A stretch of 52,136 nt of DNA from an uncultured virus (IMG/VR IMGVR_UViG_3300021399_000104) (IMGVR_UViG_3300021399_000104), one strand, 5' to 3'; positions 13,348 to 34,650 are shown, counted from the stretch's first letter. The notes: generated from the sequence alone by a model not told the origin. A program made the numbers and translations.

Positions 13348-13379
13348 TTTTTTTTGTTGTAATTTAATAATATTTCTTT

Positions 13380-13968
13380 CATTTCATATAAGGCATTGAA
13401 GAGAAAAAAAATAGGGAAGATTATTCATCACGAACTATCCTCCCTCTAAACAATGATTTATATAAAGTTTCTTGCAGTTAACTCATATATAAGGTATTAA
13501 GGGGGCAAAAAAAAAAAATAAAGGGACTATTCATCTCGAACCATCCCTTCCGTAAATTATAAAAATTCTTTATATAGGAATAAATACTAAATAAATAAGG
13601 GAGGACTATTCATCACGAACCATCATCTCCCTTTAAACTGGTTATAAAAGTAATTTATTGAACTCATATATAAGAAATTGAGTAGTGTTTAAGGAGAGAA
13701 AAAGACGTTTTGGAGAGGATAAAAAAATTAAAGGAGACTATCTTCACAGACGGCCTCACCTTAGAAAAAACAAAAATCCTTATCATATATAAGGCAAAGA
13801 GAAGTGTTTAAGGCGGAAGAAAAAAAATAGGGAAGATTATTCATCACGAACTATCTTTCCCCTTTACGTATGACAAGCTCGGAGGGGTTTGTTTTCCTCC
13901 ATATATAAGGCATAGAAGGGATAAAAAAGTAAGAGAAGGTTATTCATCACGAACGGCCTCCTCTTTAT
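13380..13968 (-). repeat. Tandem array of about five ORF-less promoter-motif/hairpin mini-units
   Basis: Plus-strand CATATATAAG at about 13483, 13664, 13783, 13899 (variant at about 13570) alternating with TATTCATCACGAAC-type hairpins preceded by A-runs. Confidence 0.8.
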
Positions 13969-13970
13969 CT

Positions 13971-14402
13971 TTACAATTCAATTTCGTAGGATGTAAACTC
14001 TTCCATTTTCCCAGTCTTTTTTGATTTAGCTTTAAAGGTTCGTTTATTTATTTTAACGAGTAGTGGGAAGCAAGTAGGGTCTGTTTCCTCGAGTGCTTGG
14101 ATTGATTTATTTATGCGTTTAGATGAAGAGAACATTTTATAGGTATTGCCAGTTTTGAGTTCCACTTCATCGGGGTCTTCTTCCCATTCATCGACTACAT
14201 CTTGGTCTACTTCATCTATTATCAGCAGCATTCTTTCCGCTCCGAATTTAGTTGGTATTCCTTTTATAAATCTTTTAATGATTATATATTGTCCAACCAT
14301 ATCTTCAAGTGAGACGGATTCATAGTCGAAGAATTGGTGAGTAGTTTCTTTTAGTTTCTTTTGTAGGTCTTTTCTTTGTTTGAGTGAAGTTATTTTTTCC
14401 AT
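13971..14402 (-). CDS. Hypothetical protein, last gene of the RT operon
   Basis: Coupled to 14402-14800; followed by a terminator hairpin at about 13930-13965. Confidence 0.7.
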   Translation of the reverse strand: MEKITSLKQRKDLQKKLKETTHQFFDYESVSLEDMVGQYIIIKRFIKGIPTKFGAERMLLIIDEVDQDVVDEWEEDPDEVELKTGNTYKMFSSSKRINKSIQALEETDPTCFPLLVKINKRTFKAKSKKTGKMEEFTSYEIEL

Positions 14403-14800
14403 TATTCTAGTTCTTCCTCTGGTTGTTCCGGATCTGCTTCAGTGCTTGGGTCCCATATACCTGCTTCTGTTGCCCATTGTCTAGCATCTTTAGCCATTTG
14501 TTTTGATTCATCTCTATACTCTTGCATTTCAGTAAAGGCCTGGATATAGTCAGGGTTATCTTTATCTTTGAGTATATTATTGATGATAGCTTCCATTTGG
14601 TCTTCACTATATTTGATACGTATGATTTGTGAAGTGAGGAAGCCATAGTCCATCGATCCCAGTGGTGTTACAATTTCGTCCCATTGCCAGCTTTGATCAG
14701 ATCCAGTAATATTGACATTGACCCGGTAGTATTTTCTCATTTTTTCCACTCCCCAGGTTACGAAGTCTGGTTTTGTTGTTCCAGTTTTGTGTGTTGCCAT
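14402..14800 (-). CDS. Hypothetical protein downstream of and overlapping the RT
   Basis: ORF overlaps the RT 3' end; YS.D.MEAIINN...EMQEYR pattern recalls Bacteroidetes phage tail-associated hypotheticals. Confidence 0.7.
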   Translation of the reverse strand: MATHKTGTTKPDFVTWGVEKMRKYYRVNVNITGSDQSWQWDEIVTPLGSMDYGFLTSQIIRIKYSEDQMEAIINNILKDKDNPDYIQAFTEMQEYRDESKQMAKDARQWATEAGIWDPSTEADPEQPEEELE

Positions 14801-16161
14801 AAGATATACTTCTTTAGATTATACTTATCCTTTATCAGGATTTTCTTATAGTCGTCTACCACCATACAGACGAAGTGCAGATAAGGGTATTTAGCTTTTT
14901 CAAACACTTTAGTTCTGATATTATAGGTAGCCGATTGTTTAAGTAGTCCGAGATAGGAGTTAATAGCCAGTACATATCGTCCCAAGAGTTTAAGTTCGGG
15001 TAGGATATTTCTCTGGTATCTTCTTCTTTTATTCATCTCGTTATAAATTTTCATACAGACTTGATTAGCGGCGTAGACATTATTATAAAGTCCTCCGATA
15101 GTTCGATTGCCTGTATATTGTCTTGAAGGTTTTATTACGTGTCCTAGTATTTTAATTCCTTTTCTAACTTCTTGGATATAGACTTTATCAGGGTGTAGTG
15201 TTATGCCAAGTTTTCTAGGTAACCATTCTCTAACTTCTCTGATTACTTTTTTTAGATTAGATCTTCTTGGCATAGTTATCACGAAGTCATCCATATATCG
15301 TCTATAGTATCCTCCTCCATTTCTTTTTATGAGAGTTTGTATAAAATCATCCATCACTGACAGATAGAAATTTACTAAGACAGAGTTAAGATAATCACCC
15401 ACCGACAATCCTTTTCCCGGTTCCTCTTGATTTAGGAAAGATCGACCTGGCTTTAGAACATTCCATCTAATTTTTCCCGTCCGATATATAAAATTTTCAG
15501 TCGGGTAATGATCGATGAATAGTTCGAGGAGCCAGAGTATCGTATCTTTATCATCCTTAGTGTAATAGGTTCGGATAAAGGCGATTATTAATTTTTTCAG
15601 TTTTTCTCGAGGTATAGACATGAAGCAATTAGAGATATCAAACTTACCAACCCATGCTTCTTTTGTATAATTCTCTGAGGTAACAATAATATCTGACTTT
15701 ATATCCCTTAACGCTTTGTCTGTTCCTCCTTTAGTTTTCTTCCTTTCGCAATATGATACATCTCCCTGTAATGTATATCGTTCTTCTAAGAGTGGTTTTA
15801 TTTTCTTAACTAACCAATGCTGAACTACCCTATCTCTAAACTCAGGGACAAAGACTTCTCTAGGTTTGGGCCATTCCATTATAAAAGCTTGATATTGACC
15901 CTGTGTATATGTCCTCTGGTAAACTTCATTGGCTAGTCGGAGAAGGTCAAAATCTACCATACCCCTATACATTGCACACTCCTTCTTACTCTCCTTCCTA
16001 ACACAACATAACCGATAAGCTCTAAACCATGACCTAATTTGACGTGGATCTTTAATTATATCGGAGGAGGCGGTTTTAGGATGATAAAGTGGTGGAGAAA
16101 TAGAAGGGAATGGTTTAACCGGAGGAGACACGAAAGGATTTTTATGGTAATCGTATGTCAT
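14758..16161 (-). CDS. Reverse transcriptase, DGR-type
   Basis: PREVFVPEFRDRVVQH (region 2), KFDISNCFMSI (region 3), GLSVGDYLNS..VNFYL (region 4), RYMDDF catalytic motif, LHPDK..Q...GIKILG, INSYLG; no maturase or endonuclease extension; adjacent Avd-like gene. Confidence 0.92.
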   Translation of the reverse strand: MTYDYHKNPFVSPPVKPFPSISPPLYHPKTASSDIIKDPRQIRSWFRAYRLCCVRKESKKECAMYRGMVDFDLLRLANEVYQRTYTQGQYQAFIMEWPKPREVFVPEFRDRVVQHWLVKKIKPLLEERYTLQGDVSYCERKKTKGGTDKALRDIKSDIIVTSENYTKEAWVGKFDISNCFMSIPREKLKKLIIAFIRTYYTKDDKDTILWLLELFIDHYPTENFIYRTGKIRWNVLKPGRSFLNQEEPGKGLSVGDYLNSVLVNFYLSVMDDFIQTLIKRNGGGYYRRYMDDFVITMPRRSNLKKVIREVREWLPRKLGITLHPDKVYIQEVRKGIKILGHVIKPSRQYTGNRTIGGLYNNVYAANQVCMKIYNEMNKRRRYQRNILPELKLLGRYVLAINSYLGLLKQSATYNIRTKVFEKAKYPYLHFVCMVVDDYKKILIKDKYNLKKYILWQHTKLEQQNQTS

Positions 16162-16169
16162 AATAAATC

Positions 16170-17039
16170 GAATGTGTTTGTTTTAAAAAGGGGATGAGGG
16201 AAAACATCTCAAACCAGTGTCGTTCTCACCTATTTTCACGACATTTTCCCCTTGAACGATCCCCTACCACTAATAAAATGTAGAGCGGGTTATCTTAGTG
16301 GCCAAATAACCTTCTCATAAATTTCGTCCCGCCAATATGTTAAGCCCCTAGTGAAAATCTTAACAAGGCTTGGGAAATAAGTATCATCACGACAGTTATT
16401 CCTGGGACTTAATTCGTTCTTTATGTACCAGTAAGAGTAGATAAGAATAGAAGAAGAGCATGAAAGGTCTAAATCCATTCCTACCTACTCCTACCCTGCA
16501 ATGTAATACTATCTGTTCTTTAATTAAACCCTCTCTCCGATACCAACTCTATACTTTACGATAATTACTTACCAAGACCACAAAGGGCGAAGAGTGGGAG
16601 AAGACTTAATAACAGACAAAGGAGAGATCCGATACATATAACCCCTCACAATATTACGTCTTAACTAAATACCTCATCATTGGCAACCGATAGATATCTA
16701 GTGGTACATCAATTTGTCTTAAAGATTAAAATGCATTCCTGTAACCTTAATCACATTCATAACATCGTTCATAAGTATTTTCCCTAATGAAACAATCTTT
16801 AACTTAATTCTTACTATAATCTTTAAGCTCGGTATCGCGACCAGATACCTTAATGGAGCATAAGAAAGATTAAGTTTTTGGGCATCTTTCATAAGGTGTG
16901 AGCCGAAAATTATCATGAGCTAGAGGAATAAACGCCTTGGGCCACGAAATAATGCGAATTCTGCCATTCCTAACCGTAAACATGAATCAAATCACATTCC
17001 ATAATAACTACAACACACACTATGTATTCCTGTTATTAA
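16170..17039 (-). ncRNA. Candidate structured spacer RNA between the last cassette and the RT
   Basis: No credible ORF; nested inverted repeats at 16189-16265, 16827-16859 and 16864-16890; position matches the TR-RT spacer of DGRs. Confidence 0.4.
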
Positions 17040-17826
17040 GGAACGAACCGGCCGTGCATAGTGAAGAGCATCACCAGCGTAGTAACCAGATTGCCAAATT
17101 CCAGCAGCTGAGCTAAAACGCACCACCAAGCTATATGGAGTGAGCTGTTGCGTACTAGTCCAAAAGAAAGGCAATTCACTAGGGAAGAGGGAACGAACAT
17201 ATTTCGATCGTCTACCTTCAAGACCCTGGAAGGGACCTATCTCAATCCCAACTCCCATAACATATGATTGATTATATGTCGTTGAAGAAATATGCGAGGT
17301 ATTACTCGATCCTCCACTAGGGAAGAAGTCATTTAAGGAACTGGCACTCTAATGTTAAGGAACGAATAAGCAGTCTAGTATCATAGAAAGCACCACCAGT
17401 CACACTACCAGCGACCCATAACCCACCACCCCTCGTAAAAAGGAACACCCAAACATGAGTGGAAACGGTTTGCGTAGTAGTCGAAAGGTAATCGTATCTA
17501 CTAGGGAAGATGGTGAAAGGAATTAGCACTTTGATGTTAAGGAACGAATATAACACTTGACCCAAGCTGGATTATGCATCTCTTCACCAGGATAATATAA
17601 CTCTGTAGGTGTACTAAGGCGAATAGCAACAGCCCAAGTTCCAACGCTAGTAGTACTGTATAGGTAAATATATGTACCACTAGGGAAAGCACAAACGGAA
17701 CGAATATATGCATTCTGGTGCTTGTGCCATAAGTGATACTGACCAAGATAGAGATTAGTAGACTGGTTAAGCGCAATCTGCCGTGACTCGAGCCTCGTCA
17801 CTTCCATAGAGCTACCAATTTCTCCA

Positions 17827-18279
17827 CTAGGGCTCCTCATGATATTCTTCTTTAATAACATCGGATTTAGTCTTATTAATCCATCTCTCTAGCTGTACAT
17901 CAATCTCTCCAAAGTCCTTAAGATAATCTGCATATTGAGAAGGCGTCAGAAGGTGAACTTTTTGCTTATTTGTCTTACTCCATTCAAATAAAATCCGAAT
18001 AATAGAAGAAACAAAGCATAAGTGTCCCTTTATTGATATTAGGCAGTCTAATCTTTCTTTAATGTTTTGTGTAGAATAGGCTAATTGAGAACCCACCAGA
18101 CAATCAAGTAACTCATCTGTCAATCTCGCTAGGTATTTCTCAATCATCGGTATCTTAGGAGAGTTTTCAGTCACCTTAAGAAAGAATAGAGAGATGTTTT
18201 CTAGTTTTCGTGTGATGGAAGGTGTATGTGGCTTCTGTAAGTGCCTCCCATTATTGTTTACTTTATTATTATTTTCCAT
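17827..18279 (-). CDS. avd: Avd-like accessory protein (four-helix bundle)
   Basis: 150 aa, helical; PK...LA, IIRILF...LLTPSQY...FGEIDVQLERW resembles the Avd LRL...S..QY...EIG..LGGW pattern; upstream of the RT. Confidence 0.75.
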   Translation of the reverse strand: MENNNKVNNNGRHLQKPHTPSITRKLENISLFFLKVTENSPKIPMIEKYLARLTDELLDCLVGSQLAYSTQNIKERLDCLISIKGHLCFVSSIIRILFEWSKTNKQKVHLLTPSQYADYLKDFGEIDVQLERWINKTKSDVIKEEYHEEP

Positions 18280-18303
18280 TTTGATATAAATAATTGTAAC
18301 CCT

Positions 18304-18349
18304 TTTAGTAGATAGCCAGAGAGTTTAATTTCTCCAACTATCTACTAAA
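18304..18349. promoter_or_regulatory. Inverted repeat upstream of avd
   Basis: TTTAGTAGATAG (18304-18315) / CTATCTACTAAA (18338-18349). Confidence 0.55.
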
Positions 18350-21300
18350 TTCAAAAAGTCTTGTCGTACCTTAATATTCCTTTAACTTAAAAGGAACGAA
18401 TGAGCTCTCCCATGTAAACCCAGGTCCAGTACAACCTACCTGCGTCCCATACAGAATGACCTGCTGTAAAAGCCTCACCCAAACTAGATCCATTCATACC
18501 CTGCGTACTAGTCCACCAGTATCCACCACTAGGGCATATGGAACGAACCCAACGTAAAACAAAATATTGACCCAAGCGCAGACATCCAGATTGACTAACT
18601 TGAAATGCACAACTTAAGATATCCCATTGAGTTTGAGGTGTAGCAGAGGCGTGTCCAATACTAGGGAAGATGGAACGAATAGCTTCATTGTCCCAAAAGT
18701 CCTGGGAACTCAAACGGCCTGTATGCTCTTTCCCCTGAGAAAATCCCATTGTACGTGACAAAGGATAAAGAGAATTAGTAGACGCCCAATGATATATCCA
18801 GTGTTCACTAGGGAAAACGGAACGAATATAAAAACTGCTGCGAGGATATCCAGTCCATAAGAGACCGACACTAAAAAATGCCATATGAGGACTATTACTA
18901 CACCAATGGGCACCCTGACTGGCTACACTAGGAACGAATAATCTGAGTTTCCCAAAAAGTACGCCCCGCCATCATTCCAGCAACGATTACAGTATTATAT
19001 GAGTGAAATTCCATGAGTAACGCATTAACTAAGTTCTGTTGTGTACTAGAGTGAACCAATTGTATTGCACTAGGAACGAACTGTAGATAAATTGTCAGAC
19101 TTAGGAAAACCACCAATGCTACCTGGATACTGGCTAATATGTTTGCCTTTCACAAAGTAAGCTACTTGCGGTGTAAGATAACTAAGAGACGTAGTTGACC
19201 AATGAACACCGTACTTTTCAACAATCCAAGCACTAGGGAAGAAGAGAAATGGAACGAACAAAGCGATCGGACGGATTGAGTGGATATATAGTAGCTCCTG
19301 GGTCGCTAATGGCCTGTCCCTCTACCCATCTATGATAAAACACTACAGTCCATTGAGCCCGAACAGCGTAAGGTGTAGAAGAAGTATGTCCATTAACACT
19401 AGGAAAGCACGGAGGGAACGAACTGAGTAATAAGTAAACGCCTGCGAGTTAACTAAGCTGCCAGGATATTGTAGAATCAGATGGCCCTTCATAAAGAAAA
19501 TTAGCCGTGGATAATTAGCAATATGAGGCACAGCTGACCAATGAGCACCCACGTTATCACCTACCCAACCACTAGGAACGAACAGAGTAAACATGTCCGA
19601 CAACATCAGAAGCCCACCTACCAGCGAGATAGATACCTTCAGATGACAGAAAACGTACAATTGAACTCTGACTGGCATCGCGGGTCATACTAGTCCAACC
19701 TACACTAGGGAAGAAGATCCATCTAGTTCATTGTATAAAGAAAATGTCTCATGAAGATGACAAAAACATCGTAATTCCCTGTCTTTTTCTAACATTTTGA
19801 CATACTTTTGAACGAACTCCTCTAGAACCTTCTGGGATTGGCGTATGTGCACTACCCGGATATTCGTTGTATTTAAGCTGACGAGACCTAAAGTTAACTG
19901 CTCGAGCACCAAAACCATTAGCATCTGTAATAGACCAGTGAATAGTAGAACTATCACTAGGGGAACGAATAATGTGTTTATCCTGTCCACTTGCAACTGT
20001 CAGCCTACCAGATATCCAAATTCCAGCATCTAATGAGAAAGGCACTGCCCAACTATAAGAACTACCTCCCGCACTCGTACTCGTCCTGGTATATCCTCCA
20101 CTAGGTAAGGTATAGAACGAATGGGTAAAGAATATGAGAGGTGGAGGAGTAATCCTGCAGAATATCCTGGAAGCTCCTGATTATTATTTCCAGTACCAAA
20201 CATAGTCCATCGTGAATAACTTCCATGTTCAGCAGCAGTCGTAGAAGACCAATGCAAGGTTTGACTAGCGGCTTGGACTCCACTAGGGAACGAACATATC
20301 GACGGGCATAGACAGAGACATCAGTAGCAAAACCAGAACCCAAATCTCCAGCACCTAAAAACAAACGCATCACCCAACTAAACCATCCACCCGCTTGCGT
20401 ACTTGTCCAATAGGCTAATCCACTAGGGGATATAAACGGAACGAATATACCAACCTATGTGAAATGGACTATAACTACATTCACCATTTCTTTGAATCAT
20501 TCCCAAGCCTGCTCTTCTAGCATAAACGCTACTATGTTGTGTACTAGACCAAAACCAGCGATCTCCACTAGGGAAATACAACAGGAACGAAAAGGATGTG
20601 AAGCAGAAACAGAATCTCTATAAATCATGCCGTTACCTTTATATACCTCAGCAAGAGTAGATGGTAGAAAGGATACTGCAATATTAGCATAGTAATAAGT
20701 CGAACAATAGATATGCAGCCCTTTGGCACTAGGGAAATATGGAACGAACTGAGTGACTTGAAAAATATTGAAATAAGCCTACAAGACCGGTTCTATCTGA
20801 ATTTCCTTCCCACCAAATTCCTAATGCATAAGTAAGCGAATACATTGTAGTAGACACGAACCTTACCCATCCACCACAAGGGAAGAGGGAACGAATGCCT
20901 CGAGTACCTCCGGATGATGCAAACTGCACACCTGGATATTCATTGTATGGCAAATTTATCGCTCTGAAATTACAAGATCGAGGAGAGTTACTGTTACCTT
21001 CAGTAGCAGAATAATGGATAGAAGGTAAGCCACTAGGGGAACGAATATAAAGAGTTGCACTTAAGTTAGCTGCCGAAGTCGTCACACCAGAAATCCATTT
21101 ATCTGAACCTCCCCAAGCAAATAACATCACTAAAACACTAGGTTCGTATGCCCGCTGTGTACTACCCCAAAGATATGCACTAGGGAATATAAACGGAACG
21201 AATATTGCGTATATAAATGTGGCTTTGATGTGCAACTTCTCCCACAAAATAAGTGGACGATCCTGTAAATCGTACCTGCCAAGAAGACATAGTAATGCAC

Positions 21301-24300
21301 TCTGTAGAAGAGAAATGCTTCTCACCAGCAGATATTCCACTAGAAAATAAGACTAACGGAACGAATAGATGTACTGTCTGGATCAAGATACTTTGCCCTA
21401 ATGTTATGACCTCCGGGATATTGGCCAACTTGAGGGTTTCTCCGACTAAACCAAAAGGCAATTAGTTGGCCGTCAGTACACTCAGTTGTTGACGACTGAG
21501 GAAGAGTCTGCCAAGTACTAGGGAAGGAGGAACGAATAGTAACAGAGTCAAAATATCTTGCGCTTGAGCTAATAGATCCATAATAATGCCCCGGTTGGTC
21601 AGCGTAACCAAACCAGCAGAGACGGACGCGGAGGTCATTTTCTCCTGTTGCTGACCATTGCCTAGTACGCATACTGTATCCACTAGGAAAAGCACAAACG
21701 GAACGAACTGAGAATTCGTGAAATATTCTGGCTGAAGAGCAAATACCAAATGATAATAGTGGATCTGATGCATATCCTACTACTATGCGTAAAGCGTAAT
21801 TGCTCGAGGTCTGAGAACCGGACCAAACTCCACTAGGGAACGAATAGAATTTGCATGATATTTGTTTCTACGTTCATTGAATCCCCCCGGACAATAATAT
21901 ATCATTTTCATGCCGTGTGATATTCCCCCAGGATGCTTGGGAAGTGGCCTCTGTTGATGACCAAGAACGATCATAGTTAGAGGCAACTCCACTAGGGAAT
22001 ACAAACGGAACGAATATATGCATTCGCGCGTGGGTCGTCTTTTTGCCGAGCGGTTAACGCACCGTAATATTGCTCAATAATGTCTCCCTGAGTAATCCAA
22101 ACGCGACGTGCACCCCCTAGGCCGATTTCCGTTGTAGACCACAAACAATGTTTTCCACTAGGAAAAGCACAAACGGAACGAACTTCATGAGTCACGTTAG
22201 TTAAATCCTGTATAATGTAACCAGAAATATGCAGAGCACTACTATATTTACTGAAATTCACCATTCTGGCACCAGTTCCTATGTGACCTGTAGCACACCA
22301 ATAGTTTTGCCAACTTATTGCACTAGGAAACGAAGATTATGAGATGAACTAGTACTATTGAAGTAATTAGTGAAGTTACCTGCGCCTAATCCTTGACCAA
22401 AAACAAATGCAAAAGGAACATAGCTTAGGCTCCAATTTCCTATCATATATAGACTGCTATGCCAATGATATACAGCTCCTCCACTAGGGAACGGAACGAA
22501 ACTAGAAGGTAACACAGGGCCTAACTCTATATTCGAGGCAGGCATGAGGATAAGTATCTCTCGACCCGTCACGCCAGCACCATGCGTATTTCCAAGTACC
22601 ATTTCTCGGTAAAACACATGTAGAGGCCCAATGTTGACCGGCCAAACCTTGTTCCCATGTTCCTCCTACACTAGGAATAATGGAACGAATAGAGTGCGTA
22701 TTAGCAGCATCTTGGCGATGTACATAGCCGGGTTGCCACTCACCTGTGTTATGACTGCCTCCCACACGTATTGTAAAGAGGAGATAACTAACTAAAAAAT
22801 CAACAGACGTCCAGTGATAAGGCGTTCCACTAGTCAGGAACGAATAGAATAGCCTGGGTAGTATTTTGATGCAGCAATTTGTACATGTCCAGGATATTCG
22901 GTTTTTAATGTAGCCCGTCCAAATCATTGAACATAAAAGGCATTCGAATGGTGCTCTGTAGTACAAGATTCCGTAGCGAGATATGATTGTCCACTAGGAA
23001 AGCACTAATAGAACGAATAAGATAATAATCTGTCCCGTTTCGTCGTGCGATAAACCCTGAATAGTTATGATCCTGGATGTTCGAACCATAAAATGCAAGA
23101 TGTAAATGAACTTGACCGGTGCACTCTGCAGAAGAGGTATGCGACGCCCCACTAGGGAACGAATAATACTTCTTTTAGAAACGTGTCGGCCGATGAATAA
23201 GCCCCGATATTGATCCGAAGTATAGTATATAGTTGTAGATAATTCCCAGGCACGTTGAGAAGTTGACCAGTGAATTGTGTACTCTCCTTGTCCTCCACTA
23301 GGAAAAGTGGAACGAACAGTTACAGCGTTTAATTCGTTGAGGAGACGGCTGCGTACATATCCAGGATATTGTAAGGCTGTACCAGCATAGCCAAACCATA
23401 CAACAAAATATTGATTCCAACTGATCTGCGTAGAACAAGATTCTGTTGCTCGATCCCAATTTCCACTAGTCAGGAACGAATAGAAAAGGCTGCATTTGCC
23501 TCTTTATGCGCTACCTGAGTAAACCTCCCCGGTGTCTGAACTACGACAGAACCATAAAAATTAAATATAGCCCAAATATACAGATGATTATCTTCAGTAC
23601 TACCTAAAAAGTAAGGACCTGGAAAACCACTAGGGACGGAACGAATAGAGTTTCCAAAATGTTTGCTTCTACGTTGAATATATCCCCAAGATAATATTGC
23701 ATCATCATCGGGCCTTGCCACAATCGCATGGAAGCTTATCAGACCGGCCTCTGTAGACGACTGAGCAAGTGCAAAGTATATGTGAGTTCCACTATGGATC
23801 AAGCGGAACGAATTGTAACATTACCGAATTTGTATGGAATGCCATTTAAATTGCCTTCGCGCCATGACCATTGACGTGCATAATACGCATTTATCTCAGT
23901 AGCAGACCAGTAAAAGTATACCATATGTCTTACACTAGGAACGAATAAAGTTTCCGAAGTGTTTGTTTCTACGCTCATTGAATCCCGAATACAGTGTTAC
24001 TGAATCACCGTGTCGTATGATATTCGCCCAGAAGGTTAGGTAATTGGCTTCTGTAGATGAATGAGTAAGAGTATAGTTATTGACCGCTCCACTAGAAAAT
24101 ACTACTAATGGAACGAACAAGGTAAACATGTCCGACAACATCAGCAGCCCATCTGCCTGCAATATATATGTCATTACCCGATACAAAACGGACAATAGAA
24201 CTAAGGTGAGGATTCCAACCCGTACTGGACCAATGGCTATTTGACCCACTAGAGGATAATGGAACGGATAGGCAAGGTCCAAGGCCATTAGAATTTTAAA

Positions 24301-25297
24301 AATATCCGACCAACCCAATCGAGTCCTCCATTATACTCGAATCCAACTGCACAAGCTTCGATAGTAGACCATAACCGAATGTTTCCACTAGGGAACGAAT
24401 CCAATGCTGAATATCATGAACCTTACTTGATGTCGTCCAGTAACCATATGATGATAGAGGAACGGACCCATATCCTACCATTATCATGCTAAACGCTGCC
24501 GATCCTGCCTCAGTAACGGAGACAACTCTAGCAAAGTTCTGAGCCTGTCCACTATGGAAGATGGTGACGATCAATCACGACATTACCGGTATAGCACATA
24601 CCTGTATCCCATATACCTGCTCCCTGCGAAAGTATCACCTCCCAACTACGAGTAGAACCGAACTGTAGGCTTGTCCAAAAGTATGCACTAGGGAACGAAT
24701 AGAATGTGGATCTGATACTATTCTTCCAGACAACACTCCCGGGGAACTGCTTAAGTCAAACGCCAGCATAAAACAATAAGGAGCAAAGAAAATAGTGCTG
24801 ACCCAAGACCAAGACGAATATCCACTAGAGAACATAAACGGAACGAACCAAACGTAGATTAAAAAAGTATTTACTAGTTGGAGTGTAGAAACCATATGAT
24901 TCTTCTGGAAAAGACCCATATCCTACCATTATCATCCAATAGCTACGATCCGCCGCTTCTGTAGCAGACATCGCCCTAGCATGGTTCTGATCTCCACTAG
25001 GACATACGGAACGAATGTGGTGAATATTATCATGAACACCAGCACCTGCCCATCTACCGGAACCCCATACCTCATGCCAGGGTGCAAACTGTACCACCAC
25101 ACCTTGAGTATATAGGGACGGCATACTACTCCAAAGGTATCCACTAGGGAACGAATATTATGCGAATCTGATGCTACTCGTTCAGATATACCTCCTTGAT
25201 TAGCAAAGGGAGAAAACACTAGTCTAATACGATAGTGACTATGATATTCAGTACTGCTCCAGAAAATATACAAGTATCCACTAGTGGGGTATATTTG

Positions 25298-25363
25298 TGG
25301 AATATCAGGAATCGAACCTGAACTTAAGAATACATCTTCGTGCTACCATTACACCATATTCCT
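25298..25363 (-). tRNA. tRNA-like element with shortened anticodon arm (pseudo-tRNA) inside the cassette array
   Basis: Minus strand AGGAATA-TG-GTGT AATGGTA GCAC-G-AAGATGTATTCTT-AAGT-TCAGG TTCGATT CCTGA-TATTCCA: canonical D and T arms, 6-bp acceptor pairing, anticodon arm 13 nt instead of 17. Confidence 0.7.
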
Positions 25364-26312
25364 AGAGATTTATTAGATCTCTATATCAATTAAGCAAGGG
25401 AACTCAAACCGCCTGTCTTTAAAGCCAGTCGGGTTCCCTTGAAAGAAGTCGTCGAGATGATCAAACATCTCTCCTCAAGAAACGTCGGTCCTAATCGTCC
25501 CTCCTTAAGGAGTGCTTAGAAAGCACAAACGGAACGAATAATGTGACTATCATTCCAGAAATTACCAGCAGTACAGTATCCAGCAGCCCTAGAATCACCC
25601 GCCGTAAAATGCGTTACCCAACTATGAGTAGGTAAGTGTTGCATACCTGTCCAAAGATATCGTCCTGATCCACTAGAAGAACGAATAAGACGGAAAGCAG
25701 AATTGTGTTGTTGTGCTGTAGCTCCTGGACTAAGAGTGAGAGTGTCAGAAGCGGACGCCTTATAAAACGCTACATACCAACGAGTCTGTCCCGCCCACTG
25801 TGTAGAAGAATCCTGCGATAAACCACTAGGGATGGAACGAATATAGCGCCGAGTATCATAAGCTTTGAGTCCATAATCAGCCAATCCCCAATCACGTATA
25901 TTGTCACTTTGTGTTGATATCACAAAGTAGAGTTGATGATAACACTCTGTAGATGACCGAACAAGAGCTGACATAGAGGTATCTCCACTAGGGAAGACGA
26001 ACGAATATAACGATTTACATAATGATATGAATGAGCCATGCTACCGGTTGGTGCTGAATCTTTCCCAAATTTAAAACCAATTGAGATCAGAAGCAGAGAT
26101 ACTTCTACAGCAGCTATATGAATTCCTGATCCACCACTAGGGAACGAATAGAATTATATCCTACACATCTTGATTCCACAGAGATTAAAAGACCAGTTGA
26201 GTAGGTGGAGGATATATAACCAAATAATAACGCCAAATCATGAAGAATATCACGTTGCGTAGAAGAATGGGATGCATCATCGTACCAAACCGCTCCACTA
26301 GGGAAGATAAAG

Positions 26313-26354
26313 AAAAATAAGAAGAGGCAGGGTTATTACTCTCTACCTCCTCTT
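26313..26354 (-). terminator. Intrinsic terminator between the Ig-like gene and the array
   Basis: Minus strand AAGAGGAGGTAGAGAG...CCTGCCTCTTCTT followed by ATTTTT. Confidence 0.65.
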
Positions 26355-26369
26355 ACAATATATAAACTT

Positions 26370-28007
26370 TTAGACAGGCATAACTTCAAACACGCCCTCT
26401 TCTACCTCAACAGACTTATATCCATCAGCAACAAAGCTAACTGGACCACCGACCTCACTCATTGAATTAGCTGGGTCGAAGCCATAATACTTTCCGCCAT
26501 AGACAGTAATATTAGCAGTTCCAGCCGTATAAGAGGAATCATAGCAGTTAAGGAGATATTTCTTTTCCTCTCCTGTCAGTTTAAACTCACCCCCGTAAAT
26601 ATTAATCTGGCCATTTTCACAGTAAATAGCGTGAGTACTAGCCGTCCATTTACCACCCATTACATTCACTACACTACTCTTATTAGATAGCCATAGACCA
26701 TAGTAATCAGAGTTAGTATATTCGCCCGTTCCTTTAATGGTTAGGTTAAGTGCAGAGCCACGTACAAAGAACATACCATTTTTCGCTCCACTAAACTCTA
26801 TATTATGTTCTCCTAGGTTCCATTCATAGTTACCTGAAGCGAAAAGGCCAAAAGTAAGTGTGGCAGTTGCATTAATATTAGCGTCAAGGTTAGTTATGCC
26901 GGGTTGTAGAGCATAAGATTTAAATTGACTCCAAGTACTAGCGTTCATTATATTAGGTGAAACTGTGTACTCTGTGTCATTTACTACCTCATCAATTCTA
27001 TTCTCAACTTTAGTATCCTTCACAACTACATTGCCCTTCTTGACAATAAGCTTCTTAATGTGTGCTGCCGGACCAACATTGAGGGTATTATCTCCAACAG
27101 TGCTTTCAACTACGTTCCAAGATGAATTAAGTGTTACTGTTGAATTAGGTGTATTGATATTTAGAGAAGGCTCATTAGTATTCCCATTTGATATAGTAAC
27201 ATTCTTATTGGTTTCACTATTAACGTTACTAGACTCTGAGAAAACACCATTAACCGTTACATTCTTTCCGACTTCGCCATTAATATTAATGTCACTAACT
27301 TCTCCCTCACTAACTTTAATAGATGTGTTTGTGTTGACGTTGTTATATAGGCCTGTCAAATACACCGTAGAAACACTGGGAGCATCAACAGTGAGATTAG
27401 AAGGTGAAGTTGAGGTGTTATTTACATACACTAATTTACTACCACTTGCTTCAACCGTTGCATCACTAGATAATGGTGCCGTGATTTTACTAGTCTTTGT
27501 TACACTAGAGGGGATAGAAATTGTACCTACTTCACCTTCTGTTATGACGACTTCTCCACCACCTTTTTCTGTTAGCTCATTTACGATAGTCTCTTCATTC
27601 TCTTCTTTCTGAGCTTCATTACCATTTTCACAGACGGTAATATCTAGGGTTGCAATAATTCCAGATGTAGAAGTAGCAGTGATGGTGGCTTGTCCTATGT
27701 TTTTACCAACTAAGAGACCATCATTTTGTACTTCTAGAATTGAACTATCCGAACTCTCCCAGATTACCTCCGGAACATTAGCAATAACAGGGCTAGGAGT
27801 GATGGTTAGGCGGGACTCTTCATTAATAGATAGGTAATGTTTTCCTGATAAAGTAATTTCGACAGCGGCATGTTCATCGCCATCATAAATTTCTTGATCT
27901 GACTTAAACTCTACACTATCTTTAATCGCCTTTTGTTGTGGAATAGAATGATAGCCGGAAGTTACATAGATTGAATCAACGCCGTTATCAAAGTATTCAG
28001 CTGACAT
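26370..28007 (-). CDS. Ig-like (Big_2-type) domain protein with a C-terminal beta-helix-like region; probable virion or surface protein
   Basis: V.WESSD.SI.EV..DG.LVG...GQATITAT Big_2 signature; repeated 'INIYGGEF/ITVYGGKY' beta-strand motifs. Confidence 0.75.
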   Translation of the reverse strand: MSAEYFDNGVDSIYVTSGYHSIPQQKAIKDSVEFKSDQEIYDGDEHAAVEITLSGKHYLSINEESRLTITPSPVIANVPEVIWESSDSSILEVQNDGLLVGKNIGQATITATSTSGIIATLDITVCENGNEAQKEENEETIVNELTEKGGGEVVITEGEVGTISIPSSVTKTSKITAPLSSDATVEASGSKLVYVNNTSTSPSNLTVDAPSVSTVYLTGLYNNVNTNTSIKVSEGEVSDININGEVGKNVTVNGVFSESSNVNSETNKNVTISNGNTNEPSLNINTPNSTVTLNSSWNVVESTVGDNTLNVGPAAHIKKLIVKKGNVVVKDTKVENRIDEVVNDTEYTVSPNIMNASTWSQFKSYALQPGITNLDANINATATLTFGLFASGNYEWNLGEHNIEFSGAKNGMFFVRGSALNLTIKGTGEYTNSDYYGLWLSNKSSVVNVMGGKWTASTHAIYCENGQINIYGGEFKLTGEEKKYLLNCYDSSYTAGTANITVYGGKYYGFDPANSMSEVGGPVSFVADGYKSVEVEEGVFEVMPV

Positions 28008-28423: not shown

Positions 28424-28690
28424 AGTTTATTCAAAATTAAAAAAGATTAATGCTAGAAAATCATCTCATTTCTAACATTTTAATTTTACTCCATCATTTA
28501 TAAGAAATCAAGTACCATCCTAAGCGCGTTTTGTTTATTTCGAAAGAAGAAAAAAAATGAGGGGACTATCTATCACAGACTGTCCCTCTCCCATGGTTAA
28601 ATTGATTAAATCTAGAAACAATTTTTGCAAATCATCCATATATAAGGAAAAGAAAGGAGACTAGACTTTTACATCTAATCTCTTTATCCT

Positions 28691-29140: not shown

Positions 29141-29412
29141 TTATATAGTTTGTTTATTGTTATTAATTTTTTACGTTTCTAAATATAAGATTTATATTGT
29201 ACTCCATACATAAGTCTTTGTTTATTCAACTCTGTCTTATGTACTTCGCGGGCATTTAGTTCGCATCTTTAGTGCTTGCAGCTCGTCTCACTGACCACGT
29301 AGAGGTATCCCGATCTTCAGTGAGGTCTTCATATATAAGAAATAGAAGGGCTGGTAATTATAAAAAAACACCAAGGATTTTTACGTCCTCAGTGTTTAAA
29401 TTATTATCTACA

Positions 29413-31629
29413 TTACATAGTAGTTGTTGTTACCTTATCTTTCTGTATTAACTTTGTGAGAATTTTTCCTAAGAGTGATGGTAAATTTCCAATATCACCC
29501 TTAATATCAATCACGTTATCAAACATATCCTCTGCTCCTTCCACAGTATCAATACATACCTGAATAACTTCCATATCCATAGTATTTTGGACTTTTTTGA
29601 CATTGCTTCTAACATCTCTGATAGCTGACATGCCATAATATCCTTCAGCTGCGGGTTCTCCATCAGACAGAACAATCATGATACAATGGTTTTGAGTAAA
29701 TTTTCTCACTCGTTTTGCTGTTTCATAGATTGCTGTTCCATCTCTATTTTGACATCGACCTGTAATATGAGTTAAGGAATCTGTGTTTTGTTTTCCACGT
29801 CCTCCTTCTCGATACTTATAGATTGTTGTAGTACCAGTTCCACCAAAAGACCTAAGATCTCCGGTGTGACCATAAATATACAAGTCAATTCCTGGACAAT
29901 CCTTAAAAGCTTCGTTCAATAAGATAGCACCTTGTCTAGCTAAATATGCTTTATTGCAACTATAACTATACATACTATCAGAACGTCCCATTGATCCACT
30001 TTCGTCTACTAAAACACAGATAGTAGTTTTATTTGTTTTTACTTCTCCTTTTCTGATATAGACTTGTGGAACACCTTGATATGCTTCCGCTAGTTTATTC
30101 TCATCCAGTTTTCCACTCCGACAACCATATATAGAGAATTCATAGTTTTTATCTATATTATTTACAAGTTTTCGAATGGACGGTATTAATGGTGAAATAT
30201 CTTTAGCTAGTTTTATGTATTTAGCTCTATCAGTATCGGATTTTTCTGCCGTAAAATAGGTCTTAGAACTTTCTCCTTTCTCGACAATACCAGAAAACAA
30301 GCCTTCAAATAAGTCTCCATGCGCATTAACATCATGTGAGGCAACATTAGCTCTAGTTGCTCCAACACGTTTAGACCTTCCAAAATTAGTGCTTAGTCTA
30401 GAATATAAGCTTCCATCACTACCAATTACAACATCTTTAGTAATAGAATTGATGGCGCTGTCTAAAATACTTTCAAATATTCTCTGAAATTCACTATCAT
30501 CTGATTTAAGCTTAAGCGTTATATCTTTGTAGTCTCTTTTAATTGATTTATAGATACTAATAGCTTTCTTACAAACATCAGCAGTAGTTTGTGGTAGAGG
30601 AGTCATTATCTTTTTAATCTCAGCGAATGATTTGTGATAGGTTTTTTCAACTGTTTCGTCAATTTCATCAGGATATCGAATTAGCCTGAATAGATTAATA
30701 AGATAATCTTTAAGTTCTATTTCTCTTTCATTTGTTATTTTTATTCCAGAAATCTCATCAACAAACTTCTTATACAGATATTGTTTAGATTTAGAAATAA
30801 AATCCAAAAATCCAGGACGAGTAGTTAATAACAGATCTTCTACTCTTTCATCCTCAATCATATTAAAGATTAAGAGTATTAGATTTCTGATATGACCTCG
30901 CTCCTCCCCTGAATATATATCTTTCTTATCATCTCGGTCTCCATCTTCTCTATCTACAGCTTTAAGATGGGAACTAATATTTCTTTCAAAATTAGTTATT
31001 ACCTTTAGATTTGTGTGTAGTAGATGAGCAGTTTCATGCAATCCTAAGCCACAGAAGATGGATATTTTATCTTCCTTTGTTTTAGCTTTATCATCCATAT
31101 AGCTGGTCGGAATAAATATGACTCTATCTACACGACCTTCTCTAAATGGACAAACCTCAGAACAGTATAAAGTACCGAGTTGTCCTTTAATTCCAACACT
31201 CTCAGATTTCTCTTCACCATCAGATTCGTATGCATTGATCTTAATACCAACAGAAAAGGGTAAATCCAGCACCACAATCATATCCCTTGCTGATCTATAG
31301 GCCGACATGATTACTTGCTCTGTCGCACCTAAAGTTGAAGTATATCCCCAGCTTTTACTTGTTGATGTAAATACGCTGGATCTATTATCAAAGAAATCAT
31401 CATACCCACCACAATATTCATTATAGTAAGATCCATGATAGGAAGGATATGAGGTAGTTTTGTCTTTATCTTTGTCCTTATCTTTTTTAGCTGGTATCGA
31501 ATAGCCGTAATAACGATGTGGGGAGGAAAAAGCGGATCTATATTTTGCATTTCTAATAGATGAACTTTTCCACCATTTATCCCAATCGAATGCTTTTTTA
31601 TTTTCTTCCAGTCTTTCTTCCCAATCCAT
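29413..31629 (-). CDS. vWA domain protein (CobT/NorD-like MoxR partner) with HExxH motif
   Basis: VLVDESGSMG MIDAS motif, IVLSDGEP, GLHETAH, N.IEDERVE. Confidence 0.85.
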   Translation of the reverse strand: MDWEERLEENKKAFDWDKWWKSSSIRNAKYRSAFSSPHRYYGYSIPAKKDKDKDKDKTTSYPSYHGSYYNEYCGGYDDFFDNRSSVFTSTSKSWGYTSTLGATEQVIMSAYRSARDMIVVLDLPFSVGIKINAYESDGEEKSESVGIKGQLGTLYCSEVCPFREGRVDRVIFIPTSYMDDKAKTKEDKISIFCGLGLHETAHLLHTNLKVITNFERNISSHLKAVDREDGDRDDKKDIYSGEERGHIRNLILLIFNMIEDERVEDLLLTTRPGFLDFISKSKQYLYKKFVDEISGIKITNEREIELKDYLINLFRLIRYPDEIDETVEKTYHKSFAEIKKIMTPLPQTTADVCKKAISIYKSIKRDYKDITLKLKSDDSEFQRIFESILDSAINSITKDVVIGSDGSLYSRLSTNFGRSKRVGATRANVASHDVNAHGDLFEGLFSGIVEKGESSKTYFTAEKSDTDRAKYIKLAKDISPLIPSIRKLVNNIDKNYEFSIYGCRSGKLDENKLAEAYQGVPQVYIRKGEVKTNKTTICVLVDESGSMGRSDSMYSYSCNKAYLARQGAILLNEAFKDCPGIDLYIYGHTGDLRSFGGTGTTTIYKYREGGRGKQNTDSLTHITGRCQNRDGTAIYETAKRVRKFTQNHCIMIVLSDGEPAAEGYYGMSAIRDVRSNVKKVQNTMDMEVIQVCIDTVEGAEDMFDNVIDIKGDIGNLPSLLGKILTKLIQKDKVTTTTM

Positions 31630-31634
31630 ATAGT

Positions 31635-32828
31635 TTAATAAGATGCTATTGTTTTGTAGATAATACTTCTTTCTCCCGTTGATTTAGAGCCTTCATATAG
31701 TGGCGCAAAGATTTTAGTGATAGAACTTCCAACATTCCATCCATCTTTGACTAATTCAGCTACATACAAAGTCTCACGAATAGATACAGAGGTTGATATT
31801 TCTTGTTTTTCAGCCAAAGAACGAACAGTGTTAGCTATCTTTACAATCGTTTTAGCTTGATCACTGGTAATTTGAGTTCTATGCATCAAGACTTTTTCCT
31901 CTTGATTCGACGGTATATAGTTCAACTCAATAGGGAAGAATCTATTAACCAAAGCTCTATCCATACTCTGTGTTCCTGTATATTCGGATCCAACATTTGC
32001 GGTAGCTATAAACGTTACCTCTGGATGTACATTAATTTCACGTACACTCTTAGATCCAGCCACTTCAATAGATAATTTTCTTCTATCATCGAGACAAGGG
32101 AACAGAATATTATTGGATGCGTAAGATGCTCGAGAAAGTTCATCAAGCAAAATTACACATGGTTCCTGAATAGCCTGGGTGAAGTTAGCATAATCAAATA
32201 CACTCTTTCCATCCTCCAATCTATGAACGCCTAAAAGAGATGAAATAGGATCAATAATAGAACCCATATCGAAGACGTGCAATTTGACGCCAAGTTTCTC
32301 ACAGGCAAGTTTAATTAAGGAGGTTTTACCAGTACCAGTCGGGCCAATAATCATAGTATTAATGTGCTTCTTAATATTTCTCAGAAGCAATGTCCAATTC
32401 TCTTTCTCTACAAAAAATCCTTCTTTGTTGGGAGTAGGCATATCAATCTTAGCCATTTCATCAAAGAAGGTTGGCTCCTTTATTTCTTCCTTTACCTCTT
32501 CTTTTGTTGTTTCCTCAGTCGTTGATTCCTCTTTTGGTATTGCTGCCATAAGCTTCTCGTATTCTGCTCTGACGACGGGACTTGACATCTTATCTGTTAA
32601 ATTAAGATAATAAATATTTCCTGCCTTATAATGTGTTTTACCAATCGAATAAAGGGAGTAAGAAAAGAAGATAGATCCGATGGGCTTAGAATCACGAACA
32701 CTCTTACTGCATGATACTCTAAGTTTTGGATTAATCTCTTCTCCACTTCCTAAAAACTTCTGACCTGGTAAAGGATAAACTTTCGTTTCTTTTTTCTCTG
32801 TAACGGTTTTGAAAAAATAATAACTCAT
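31635..32828 (-). CDS. MoxR/CbbQ/NirQ-family AAA+ ATPase
   Basis: GPTGTGKT Walker A, ILLDELSR Walker B, FIATAN, DRALVNRF. Confidence 0.9.
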   Translation of the reverse strand: MSYYFFKTVTEKKETKVYPLPGQKFLGSGEEINPKLRVSCSKSVRDSKPIGSIFFSYSLYSIGKTHYKAGNIYYLNLTDKMSSPVVRAEYEKLMAAIPKEESTTEETTKEEVKEEIKEPTFFDEMAKIDMPTPNKEGFFVEKENWTLLLRNIKKHINTMIIGPTGTGKTSLIKLACEKLGVKLHVFDMGSIIDPISSLLGVHRLEDGKSVFDYANFTQAIQEPCVILLDELSRASYASNNILFPCLDDRRKLSIEVAGSKSVREINVHPEVTFIATANVGSEYTGTQSMDRALVNRFFPIELNYIPSNQEEKVLMHRTQITSDQAKTIVKIANTVRSLAEKQEISTSVSIRETLYVAELVKDGWNVGSSITKIFAPLYEGSKSTGERSIIYKTIASY

Positions 32829-34143: not shown

Positions 34144-34189
34144 CAGACATTTATTTTCGTCTTCAGGATCTAGTTAAACAATAATTTCT

Positions 34190-34650
34190 CTATCATATAT
34201 AAGGAATTGATTGGTATTTTAGGCGGAAAAAATAAAAAGGAGGACTATCTATCACAGACCGTCCCCTGAAAAGAACAAATGAAAAAATATAAAATGAGAT
34301 TCATATATAAGGAAAATAAAGAGGGAATATTCATCCCTCTCCTTTTGCTTAATTCAATTCAATTCTTTCTTTCTTGGCAGGTATAAAGATGTTCATTTTC
34401 ACTCTGCCACTTTTTCTCGTGTTGTAACTTTTCGGATCAATTCTTACAATCCGTTCGCTTTTTAAAAATTTTGCCATTTTCTTTTATTTGATTAAACATT
34501 CATTCATATATAAGGAATTCAAGGGTTATAAAAAAAAAATAAAAAGGGGGACTATCTATCACAGACTGTCCCTCCTCAGGAAAAAACCAACATGTTTATT
34601 CGTATATAAGGAAAAGAAAAGAAGGAGATTATATTTTCCCCTTCTTTAGT
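34190..34650 (-). repeat. Promoter-motif/hairpin mini-units (two ORF-less, one containing a 42-aa ORF)
   Basis: CATATATAAGG at about 34193, 34301, 34503 and variant 34600; CTATCTATCACAGAC hairpins at about 34245 and 34552. Confidence 0.75.
34349..34477 (-). CDS. Small basic protein (42 aa, MAKFLKSERIVRIDPK...), not in the ORF track
   Basis: Hand translation; has its own promoter motif (34503) and terminator (about 34318-34341). Confidence 0.55.
   Translation of the reverse strand: MAKFLKSERIVRIDPKSYNTRKSGRVKMNIFIPAKKERIELN

Follow-up and report, generated by a model that had tools for sequence, protein, structure and literature searches.

A tandem array of 54 unlike coding cassettes among the parts of a diversity-generating retroelement in an uncultured virus

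The minus strand of a 52,136-nucleotide (nt) stretch of DNA from an uncultured virus (IMG/VR IMGVR_UViG_3300021399_000104), a gut phage, called the window below and meaning the whole stretch that was analysed, carries a tandem array of 54 coding cassettes set among the components of a diversity-generating retroelement (DGR). This array is genuine and very unusual: its parts are those of a DGR, yet within the window it lacks two hallmarks that define DGRs, namely the SQ motif of the reverse transcriptase (RT) and an adenine-type pair of template repeat (TR) and variable region (VR). Our best reading is that the array constitutes a stored library of 54 alternative variable, ligand-binding C-terminal halves of a lectin-like domain of the DUF1566/Lcl_C type, held within a DGR-derived retroelement. 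We tentatively propose that this library serves as a donor from which the RT and its accessory protein Avd copy single cassettes into a remote gene of the lectin fold, an idea that we consider possible without calling it probable. The proposal builds on the anatomy of the array, the coding constraint on its units, the conservation of the anchors at the nucleotide level, the DGR kinship of RT and Avd, and the turnover of cassettes between strains; from there we infer which way the transfer runs, what the RT does and that a target gene exists.

Anatomy and coding constraint of the cassette array

Read along the minus strand, the locus comprises the gene of a 545-amino-acid (aa) immunoglobulin-like (Ig-like) protein, five cassette units, a palindrome and a tRNA-like element, 35 units, a gap of about 100 nt, nine units, avd, five units, an 878-nt spacer and the RT gene (Table 1). 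Anchor pairing defines 54 units between 26305 and 17040; their anchor-to-anchor lengths span 114-183 nt, and their median period is about 157 nt. Every unit starts with CCTAGTG(G), which reads Pro-Ser-Gly, and ends with TTCGTTC(C), which reads Arg-Ser. The 5' anchor TTCCCTAGTGG, with at most 2 mismatches, is found 54 times in the window against 11.6 +/- 3.7 times in shuffled sequences, and none of 100 shuffles reached 54; 46 of the 54 matches are on the minus strand between 17176 and 26305. The 3' anchor RTTCGTTCC, with at most 1 mismatch, is found 66 times where 16.8 +/- 4.0 matches are expected, and 53 of the 66 are on the minus strand between 17040 and 26149. Both anchors are over-represented and confined to one strand of one region. 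From one 3' anchor to the 5' anchor of the next unit the minus strand leaves a gap of 0-19 nt. At minimal junctions the letters TTCC are common to both anchors, and ATTCGTTCCCTAGTGG is present in 8 of 53 junctions, a pattern that looks like microhomology joining.

The interiors of the units are very unlike one another, the closest pair sharing about 70% nucleotide identity. They are too diverged for Tandem Repeats Finder, which, run on the window, left the array undetected. One pairing of 234 nt (24692->24466) is doubtful and overlaps the following unit. In unitigs of the probable source run, the depth of the array equals that of its flanks (about 31-32); the array is therefore single-copy and does not represent an assembly pile-up. 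An earlier note, made from the DNA sequence alone, had described a library of about 54 unlike cassettes between conserved anchors, and both the count of units and the comparison with shuffles agree with that description; the peptides that it quoted are present among the units. The RT and the Avd-like gene that it had placed alongside the array were both found, the latter lying inside the array rather than beside it.

The length from anchor to anchor is a multiple of three in 53 of 54 units. Read in the PSG...RS frame, 49 of the 54 are free of stop codons, as compared with 11 and none in the other two frames. The doubtful pairing mentioned above is among the 53 in-frame units; it contains four stops and is open if read to its own degenerate anchor. 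Decayed units are found in sub-array B, with stops in 24692, 24392, 22998 and 22675 and a frameshift in 21996. In sub-array D, three of the five units bear longer tails with their own stop codons (LTSKC, LTLECQFLK and LITGIHSVCCSYYGM). Measured from the Arg codon to the next Pro codon, the linkers fall in frames 0, 2 and 1 in 19, 18 and 16 cases. Since linkers occur in all three frames, the array is not one decayed long open reading frame (ORF); the preserved property is to be in frame from anchor to anchor. The units are individually coding-competent. A recoding of TAG as glutamine was rejected, by inspection only, as there is no TAG at the anchor in the cassette frame and the frames of the junctions differ.

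Codon usage separates the ends of the units from their interiors. Anchor codons are fixed (CGT in 54 of 54 units, AGT in 53, TCC in 48 and CCT in 44), whereas in the interiors Arg is written as CGT in about one case in four and Ser as TCC in about 6% of cases. The interior framework, consisting of W-S-S-T, an aromatic residue and a Gly (in 51 of 52 aligned units), is retained. The framework residues are nonetheless written in mixed codons: TCT, TCA, TCC, TCG, AGT and AGC for Ser, including switches between TCN and AGY, GGT, GGA, GGC and GGG for Gly, and ACG, ACA and ACT for Thr. Mixed synonymous codons inside and fixed codons at the ends indicate selection at the protein level in the interiors and at the nucleic-acid level at the ends.

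Inside the array, downstream of a stop codon and of the palindrome CTCCTTAAGGAG, lies a tRNA-like element, which may be an RNA-processing signal or a relic. ARAGORN, run on the window, found no tRNA and left this element uncalled.

Table 1. Features of the cassette locus and of its surroundings (positions in the window).
Feature	Position	Strand	Remarks
Whole cassette array	17040..26305	-	54 units, from 5' anchor (TT)CCCTAGTGG to 3' anchor RTTCGTTCC; interrupted by three non-cassette blocks
Sub-array A, units 1-5	25531..26305	-	unit 5 runs on as ...IRSVCAF, then stop at 25516-25518
Punctuation block 1	25288..25530	-	VCAF tail and stop, palindrome CTCCTTAAGGAG (25501-25512), about 140 nt of other sequence, tRNA-like element
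tRNA-like element with shortened anticodon loop	25297..25363	-	Rfam tRNA 43.4 bits, E 1.6e-6; loop of 5 nt against 9 in the model
Sub-array B, 35 units	19809..25287	-	contains decayed units
Punctuation block 2	19713..19808	-	about 100 nt of non-cassette sequence between units
Sub-array C, 9 units	18393..19712	-	final unit ends ...IRSF, then stop
Avd-like accessory gene, 150 aa	17827..18279	-	inside the array; 49 units upstream, 5 downstream
Sub-array D, 5 units	17040..17834	-	between avd and spacer, the canonical DGR template-repeat position
Non-coding spacer, 878 nt	16162..17039	-	between last unit and RT gene; no ORF of at least 80 aa
Predicted hairpin in spacer	16430-16495	-	stem of about 22 pairs, AGGGUAGGAGUAGGUAGGAAUGGA... 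with ...UCUUAUCUACUCUUACU
Reverse transcriptase, 467 aa	14758..16161	-	phrog_1423 3.9e-51, Pfam RVT_1 1.2e-14
ORF, 132 aa	14402..14800	-	overlaps 3' end of RT gene
Ig-like (Big_2) structural protein, 545 aa	26370..28007	-	directly upstream of the array
Intergenic repeat family	13378-13966, 28544-28658, 29325-29368, 34176-34622		CATATATAAGG-type boxes, A-run and GGGA...TCCC hairpin
MoxR-type AAA+ ATPase and VWA gene pairs	29413-32828, 45041-49052	-	two pairs
Short-period repeat region	46032-46560		
RNase H	41330-41818	-	
IMPDH/GMP-reductase-like dehydrogenase	50550-51599	+	
YqeY-like protein	2599-2988	+	

Cassette peptides and retroelement components

The cassettes share the consensus PSG..(H/Y)WSST(E/Q)....a...F.....G.......(I/V)RS, often continuing as VCAF, and range from 38 to 61 aa in length. 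Their composition is of the binding-surface type. Trp amounts to 4.4% as against 0.9% in the other genes, with His, Tyr and Ser also raised, while Lys drops from 7.6% to 1.5%, with Glu and Asp also lowered; the codons AAA, AAG and AGA together occur 27 times per 1000 instead of 95. A profile built from 49 cassettes and searched against 1.84 billion protein representatives (E <= 1e-3) retrieved only 25 proteins. Most of these are short ORFs of one to three cassettes; 12 come from the window and eight from related arrays elsewhere (P0004, P0008, P0011-P0014, P0018 and P0020). Two long proteins, P0021 and P0023, hold the cassette motif within whole lectin-like domains. P0021 reads '...ASPSGDYYWTSTE...SVRPV', and P0023 matches the Pfam family Lcl_C (PF07603, formerly DUF1566) at 4.8e-17.

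Aligned by hhalign, the cassette profile and P0023 gave a probability of 82.6% over the HWSSTE..AW..F motif; with the variable ends of the targets of two canonical DGR loci, L003 and L002, the values were 44% and 24%. These comparisons support the view that the cassette peptides are similar to the variable C-terminal half of lectin-like domains of the DUF1566/Lcl_C type. The lectin-fold similarity asked for in the earlier note finds backing in the retrieval of an Lcl_C protein, yet none of the 49 single cassettes matches any Pfam lectin family, a point that counts against the library reading. A unit of about 50 aa set against the 117 positions of the Lcl_C model is not a whole domain; judged by these alignments, it would correspond to the variable C-terminal half only and would probably be unable to fold alone.

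Sequence comparison places the RT in the DGR lineage. Its catalytic YMDD is intact. The relatives collected from IMG/VR and from a metagenome-assembled genome of Bacteroidales share 32-37% identity with it, and a tblastn search against phages retrieved the DGR RTs of Bacteroides phages at about 30% identity. Where six relatives that cover the motif read IGN(L/I)(P/T)SQ, that is IGNLPSQ or IGNITSQ, the RT of the window reads VGDYLNS. PMC7826257 gives [I/V/L]GxxxSQ as the signature motif of DGR RTs, and the same paper reports that a Q187P change left the misincorporation frequency unaltered.

All four of the RT-relative loci examined are canonical DGRs, with, in this order, a target bearing a C-terminal VR, an avd gene, an AAC-rich TR and an RT. 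Their VRs end in ...VRPVAAF or ...VLPVFAC, like the IRSVCAF seen in the array. No array accompanies any of these RTs, as no 8-mer or 9-mer is over-represented in L001-L008 or L137; loci combining RT, avd and array, for which the earlier note had suggested looking in related phages, were therefore absent from this set. In one canonical relative (L005, 10001-11227, plus strand) the RT frame holds one in-frame stop, which may reflect stop-codon recoding or a pseudogene; amber suppression has been reported for RT genes of Zeta crAss-like phages in PMC12386605.

The non-coding spacer that separates the last unit from the RT gene has a folding z-score of -2.85 (16150-17060) and is a candidate for a structured RNA equivalent to the 'Sp' RNA of DGRs. 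An RNA-library contig of the source sample spans 16072-17104 at a depth of 11.2, the highest among the listed RNA contigs; DNA carry-over being possible, it lends weak support to transcription. The spacer also contains a predicted hairpin (Table 1).

The 150-aa protein encoded inside the array matches the NCBIfam model DivGenRetAVD weakly (E 0.06), the match covering positions 3-103 of 104. It is predicted to form a four-helix bundle (predicted local distance difference test score 81), and the structures that Foldseek ranks highest for this model are Avd chains from the DGR of the Bordetella phage (8ub7_E and 4dwl; template modelling scores of 0.73-0.81 by target, E 0.014-0.09). A sequence search of the PDB returned nothing, and no sequence likeness to the Avd of L003 was seen. 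An Avd fold is therefore supported at the level of the predicted structure. The TAG stop codon of avd lies inside the CCCTAGTGG anchor of the following unit.

On another reading, the region would be an ordinary DGR with several templates, plus relics. Up to five post-avd units would then be working templates for one to three remote targets, and the 49 upstream units decaying remnants of duplicated variable regions from a lost target. The five units do occupy the template position, three of them possess complete C-terminal tails and stops, and the upstream gene is devoid of a lectin domain, as if a target had been truncated. The earlier note's statement of a single TR in canonical DGRs is nearly but not strictly correct, because PMC12386605 describes two Zeta crAss-like phages with up to three TR-VR pairs, which would also suit this explanation. 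However, 45 of the 49 upstream units are in frame, free of stops and equipped with both anchors and the framework residues, while linkers of similar age have drifted through all frames; decay would not spare the interiors. A search among longer proteins also gave none similar to the last unit, which is weak evidence. We thus hold a multi-template DGR with relics to be very unlikely.

Cassette turnover, proposed transfer and search for a target

At least part of the 10-kb stretch occurs in eight sequencing runs from four studies, and the contigs of four runs were aligned. The stretches of the array left uncovered by contigs of the independent runs X5 and X8 are no evidence of absence, and the joints inside the array and at 13390/28663 were not counted as rearrangements, their sides measuring only 20-48 letters and lying at repeats. 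X5 differs from the window at 62 of 2082 letters in the RT gene, at 12 of 576 in avd and at 5 of 822 in the spacer (16226-17047). It also covers sub-array A (25547-26600), with 20 differences and 8 gaps in 1054 letters over units 1-5. X8 matches the start of the RT gene and the spacer (15990-17047; 25 differences and 8 gaps in 1058 letters), and both runs cover avd, X8 in part. Across these contigs, which come from two independent studies, RT, spacer and avd are about 92-99% identical.

The same contigs diverge from the window exactly at anchors (17047, 17826 and 18401). X5 has the far end of the array, units 1-5, in common with the window and differs in the units adjoining avd and the spacer. 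Proteins from related arrays add further cases. P0018 joins a relative of unit 23796, differing at 22 of 53 residues, directly to unit 23156, which is nearly identical; in the window three units lie between the two, so that whole cassettes have been gained or lost. P0008 is identical over its part of unit 21687 (about 47 residues) and shows 10 differences in 60 across unit 21522 and its tail, and P0004 and P0014 place unit 25677 in other neighbourhoods. By these alignments, cassette content and order, the unit in the template position included, turn over much faster than the surrounding machinery. These differences concern content and order within the array, and no transfer event was seen. A megablast of 14000-27000 against the phage collection gave nothing, an exact scan of viral_contigs and metagenome_contigs for the 15-nt zero-linker junction gave single chance matches per contig among the matches listed, and P0013 was not found in viral_contigs.

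How might such a library be used? According to bioRxiv 10.1101/2023.10.23.563531, two duplexes involve the spacer RNA of the Bordetella phage DGR: a priming duplex with the 3' end of the TR, and a stop duplex with the sequence just upstream of the TR. We propose that each cassette is a self-contained, in-frame replacement module and that the two anchors serve as nucleic-acid signals and not only as codons. The array and the 0.9-kb spacer would be transcribed; RT-Avd, bound to the spacer RNA, would begin copying a cassette into cDNA at its 3' anchor and halt at its 5' anchor; and the cDNA would then take the place of the sequence that the same anchors enclose in a lectin-fold receptor-binding gene outside the window. 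Because all cassettes end alike, a single spacer RNA and a single RT-Avd complex could serve any of them, and with these ends in the target gene as well the replaced stretch would be defined and always in frame. The recipient gene would hold CCTAGTGG...TTCGTTCC(GTTTGTGCTTTC) and a stop after the N-terminal half of a DUF1566/Lcl_C domain; ORFs ending in ...IRSLTSKC, ...IRSLTLECQFLK or ...IRSLITGIHSVCCSYYGM are also conceivable. The outcome would be a swap of the whole tip, changes of length included, instead of or besides adenine point mutagenesis. In its full form, in which one machine of RT, Avd and spacer RNA copies any of the 54 length-variable cassettes into a phage receptor-binding gene and the RT may have given up adenine mutagenesis with the change from SQ to NS, this scheme is doubtful, and we hold it with low confidence.

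Several findings weigh against it. The RT is devoid of the SQ of the DGR signature. No cassette-like peptide was found outside the array when the six frames of the window were searched with a hidden Markov model of the cassettes (best row E = 2), and Pfam found no lectin-type domain in the ORFs of the window. Neither did the profile search reveal any long protein ending in a cassette among the 1.84 billion representatives, although single-cassette ORFs scored only 37-49 bits there, which limits the sensitivity for a single cassette. No unit pair resembling TR and VR occurs in the window, the best pair being about 70% identical, and the 20 closest pairs differ equally at codon positions 1, 2 and 3 (355, 329 and 406 differences) with no adenine bias. 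Unlike canonical templates, the cassettes are poor in adenine (24.7% versus 32.2%) and not enriched in AAY. The anchors, of about 9-11 nt, are short for homing, and only the last unit adjoins the spacer, so that the other 53 would need long-range RNA pairing. The spacer does hold complements of both anchors (-15.5 and -10.5 kcal/mol), which 1 of 500 shuffles matched for both; the complementarity looked better than in shuffles, the dinucleotide shuffles giving 14, 13 and 1 of 500. One of three control regions, a coding one, equalled the spacer in this respect (0 of 500 shuffles), and the complementarity is consequently not counted as support.

Further searches bear on the target. A word-indexed profile search for longer proteins retrieved array ORFs only, and the last cassette searched in the same way gave nothing similar; both blanks are weak evidence. 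The 545-aa Ig-like protein upstream of the array has a C-terminus that is not lectin-like and carries no anchor, and it is therefore not the target as it stands. It showed no significant likeness to the target of L003 and a weak local match to that of L002 (E 0.004). The target gene with anchors that the earlier note had called for was found neither in the six frames of the window nor, in recognisable form, in the protein libraries. As for the note's wider proposal, that a cassette library replaces the receptor-binding tip of a target protein, it is favoured by the coding units, the lectin likeness, the DGR kinship and the turnover, while target, transfer, TR/VR pair and adenine signature were not found.

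The library could also operate without the RT, as a store of silent cassettes used by DNA recombination or gene conversion, the anchors acting as short homology or recombinase sites for an expression site like those of vls, pilS or tprK. In-frame modules, fixed ends and fast turnover at the anchors fit this explanation equally well, and the TTCC microhomology at the junctions, the missing adenine signature and the altered RT motif speak in its favour. On the other hand, the 15-kb block around the array yielded no recognisable recombinase, integrase or invertase, neither the window nor the protein libraries revealed an expression site, and anchors of 9-11 nt are below the homology that recombination usually needs. 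Moreover, it leaves unexplained why the array surrounds avd and why it has a structural gene on one side and, on the other, the spacer and an RT that is intact and conserved. We regard this explanation as unlikely.

Alternatively, the array may never have been a donor but an archive or by-product, built in reverse as cDNA copies of variable regions, past or foreign, were inserted in tandem. Aberrant or 'recording' retrohoming, together with template switching at TTCC microhomology, would supply the copies, whose open frames would be inherited from expressed variable regions. Having little adenine and many aromatic, Ser and Gly residues, the cassettes resemble mutagenised variable regions and not templates, and the junctions are heterogeneous and often overlapped by microhomology. 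The strain differences, with X5 sharing the far end and differing near avd and the spacer, are those of a growing or shrinking record, and no target was found for the cassettes to feed. Yet the length range of 38-61 aa is beyond canonical retrohoming, and the differences between paralogous units involve every codon position and are not limited to template adenines. Retention of the framework with synonymous codons, TCN/AGY switches included, bespeaks long divergence under protein-level selection, and a dead record would not require both anchors to stay fixed at the nucleotide level in old, diverged units. An archive of this kind, including the retrohoming route just outlined, seems improbable to us.

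Surroundings of the locus, known systems and significance

An intergenic repeat family recurs in the window, with five copies in a row at 13.4-14.0 kb and others at 28.5, 29.3 and 34.2-34.6 kb (Table 1). These repeats look like phage promoter/terminator modules and flank a 15-kb block that contains the RT, the array and Ig-like genes. Contigs of other samples join across the 15.3-kb block, from 13386-13390 to 28586-28663: an X5 contig skips the block and an X8 contig runs from its end back to its start, the matching sides being only 24-41 letters long and lying in the intergenic repeats. The joints may represent a presence/absence polymorphism of the whole module or a repeat artefact.

Downstream of the RT, the 132-aa ORF has no family in Pfam, PHROGs or NCBIfam, and its only leads in Atlas, all weak, point to tail-fibre-associated families (scores 0.84-0.86). 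Atlas returned no family for either of the two small ORFs that lie downstream of the RT. Of the two pairs of MoxR-type AAA+ ATPase and VWA genes, one combines AAA_5/CbbQ_C with a CobT-like VWA protein and the other combines AAA_5 and VWA_CoxE. In the latter pair the VWA protein (820 aa) has an additional match to a PHROG annotated as HNH endonuclease, and it contains a short-period repeat region. Genes for an RNase H, an IMPDH/GMP-reductase-like dehydrogenase and a YqeY-like protein were also identified. No capsid, portal or terminase gene was recognised in the 52-kb window. The clusters to which these ORFs belong occur on contigs of up to 330 kb, and the window is therefore a fragment of a much larger genome.

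DGRs diversify proteins by point mutagenesis from a single invariant template. Compared with the mtd-avd-TR-brt locus of Bordetella phage BPP-1 and with the DGRs of Bacteroides and crAss-like phages, the locus described here shares a related RT, an Avd-fold gene upstream of the template position, a non-coding stretch between template and RT, and cassettes resembling the C-terminal VR of lectin-fold targets, with a tail like ...VRPVAAF. It differs in holding 54 dissimilar cassettes of variable length instead of one template (three at most in print), in the embedding of avd within the array, in an RT motif with NS and not SQ, and in that no TR/VR pair, adenine signature or target was found. Furthermore, the cassette in the template position varies between strains, whereas the canonical template is the invariant part.

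Outside the retroelements, the closest parallels are bacterial. Borrelia vlsE/vls, Neisseria pilE/pilS and Treponema tprK rely on promoterless stores of diverse in-frame segments with short conserved repeats and fast strain variation; their mechanism is gene conversion at the DNA level, and the expression site is known and close by. The array is similarly a tandem store of in-frame segments of one surface-protein region with short conserved bounds. Unlike them, it belongs to a phage, has RT, Avd and spacer RNA in cis, consists of cassettes of about 150 nt with out-of-frame junctions, and shows no expression site in the window. Shufflons, with inverted sfx sites and Rci, and integrons, with attC sites and IntI, likewise separate alternative C-terminal segments or promoterless cassettes by short conserved sites, but here the anchors are all in direct orientation, the units are fragments of genes, and neighbouring ORFs showed no recombinase family. 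CRISPR arrays consist of identical repeats of 23-50 nt, non-coding spacers and cas genes; such an array was ruled out by the variable junctions of 15-30 nt, the in-frame coding 'spacers' of 114-183 nt and the lack of any cas family among the ORFs scanned. Full-text searches of the articles themselves returned no description of such an array; the closest case in print is that of the three TR-VR pairs in two Zeta crAss-like phages (PMC12386605).

There is a substantial chance that the array represents a new mode of retroelement-driven diversification. If our proposal is right, the DGR machinery would gain a second mode of diversification, the swapping of whole modules, which would explain how a phage might jump between very different receptors rather than explore the surroundings of one tip. 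It would provide a mechanistic link between retroelements and the silent-cassette systems of bacterial pathogens, and would amount to a phage counterpart of antigenic variation or of V(D)J-type combinatorial diversity, achieved via RNA. Programmable replacement of gene segments would likewise gain a natural scaffold. Even as a mere archive, the array would be a readable record of the past binding specificities of a phage lineage.

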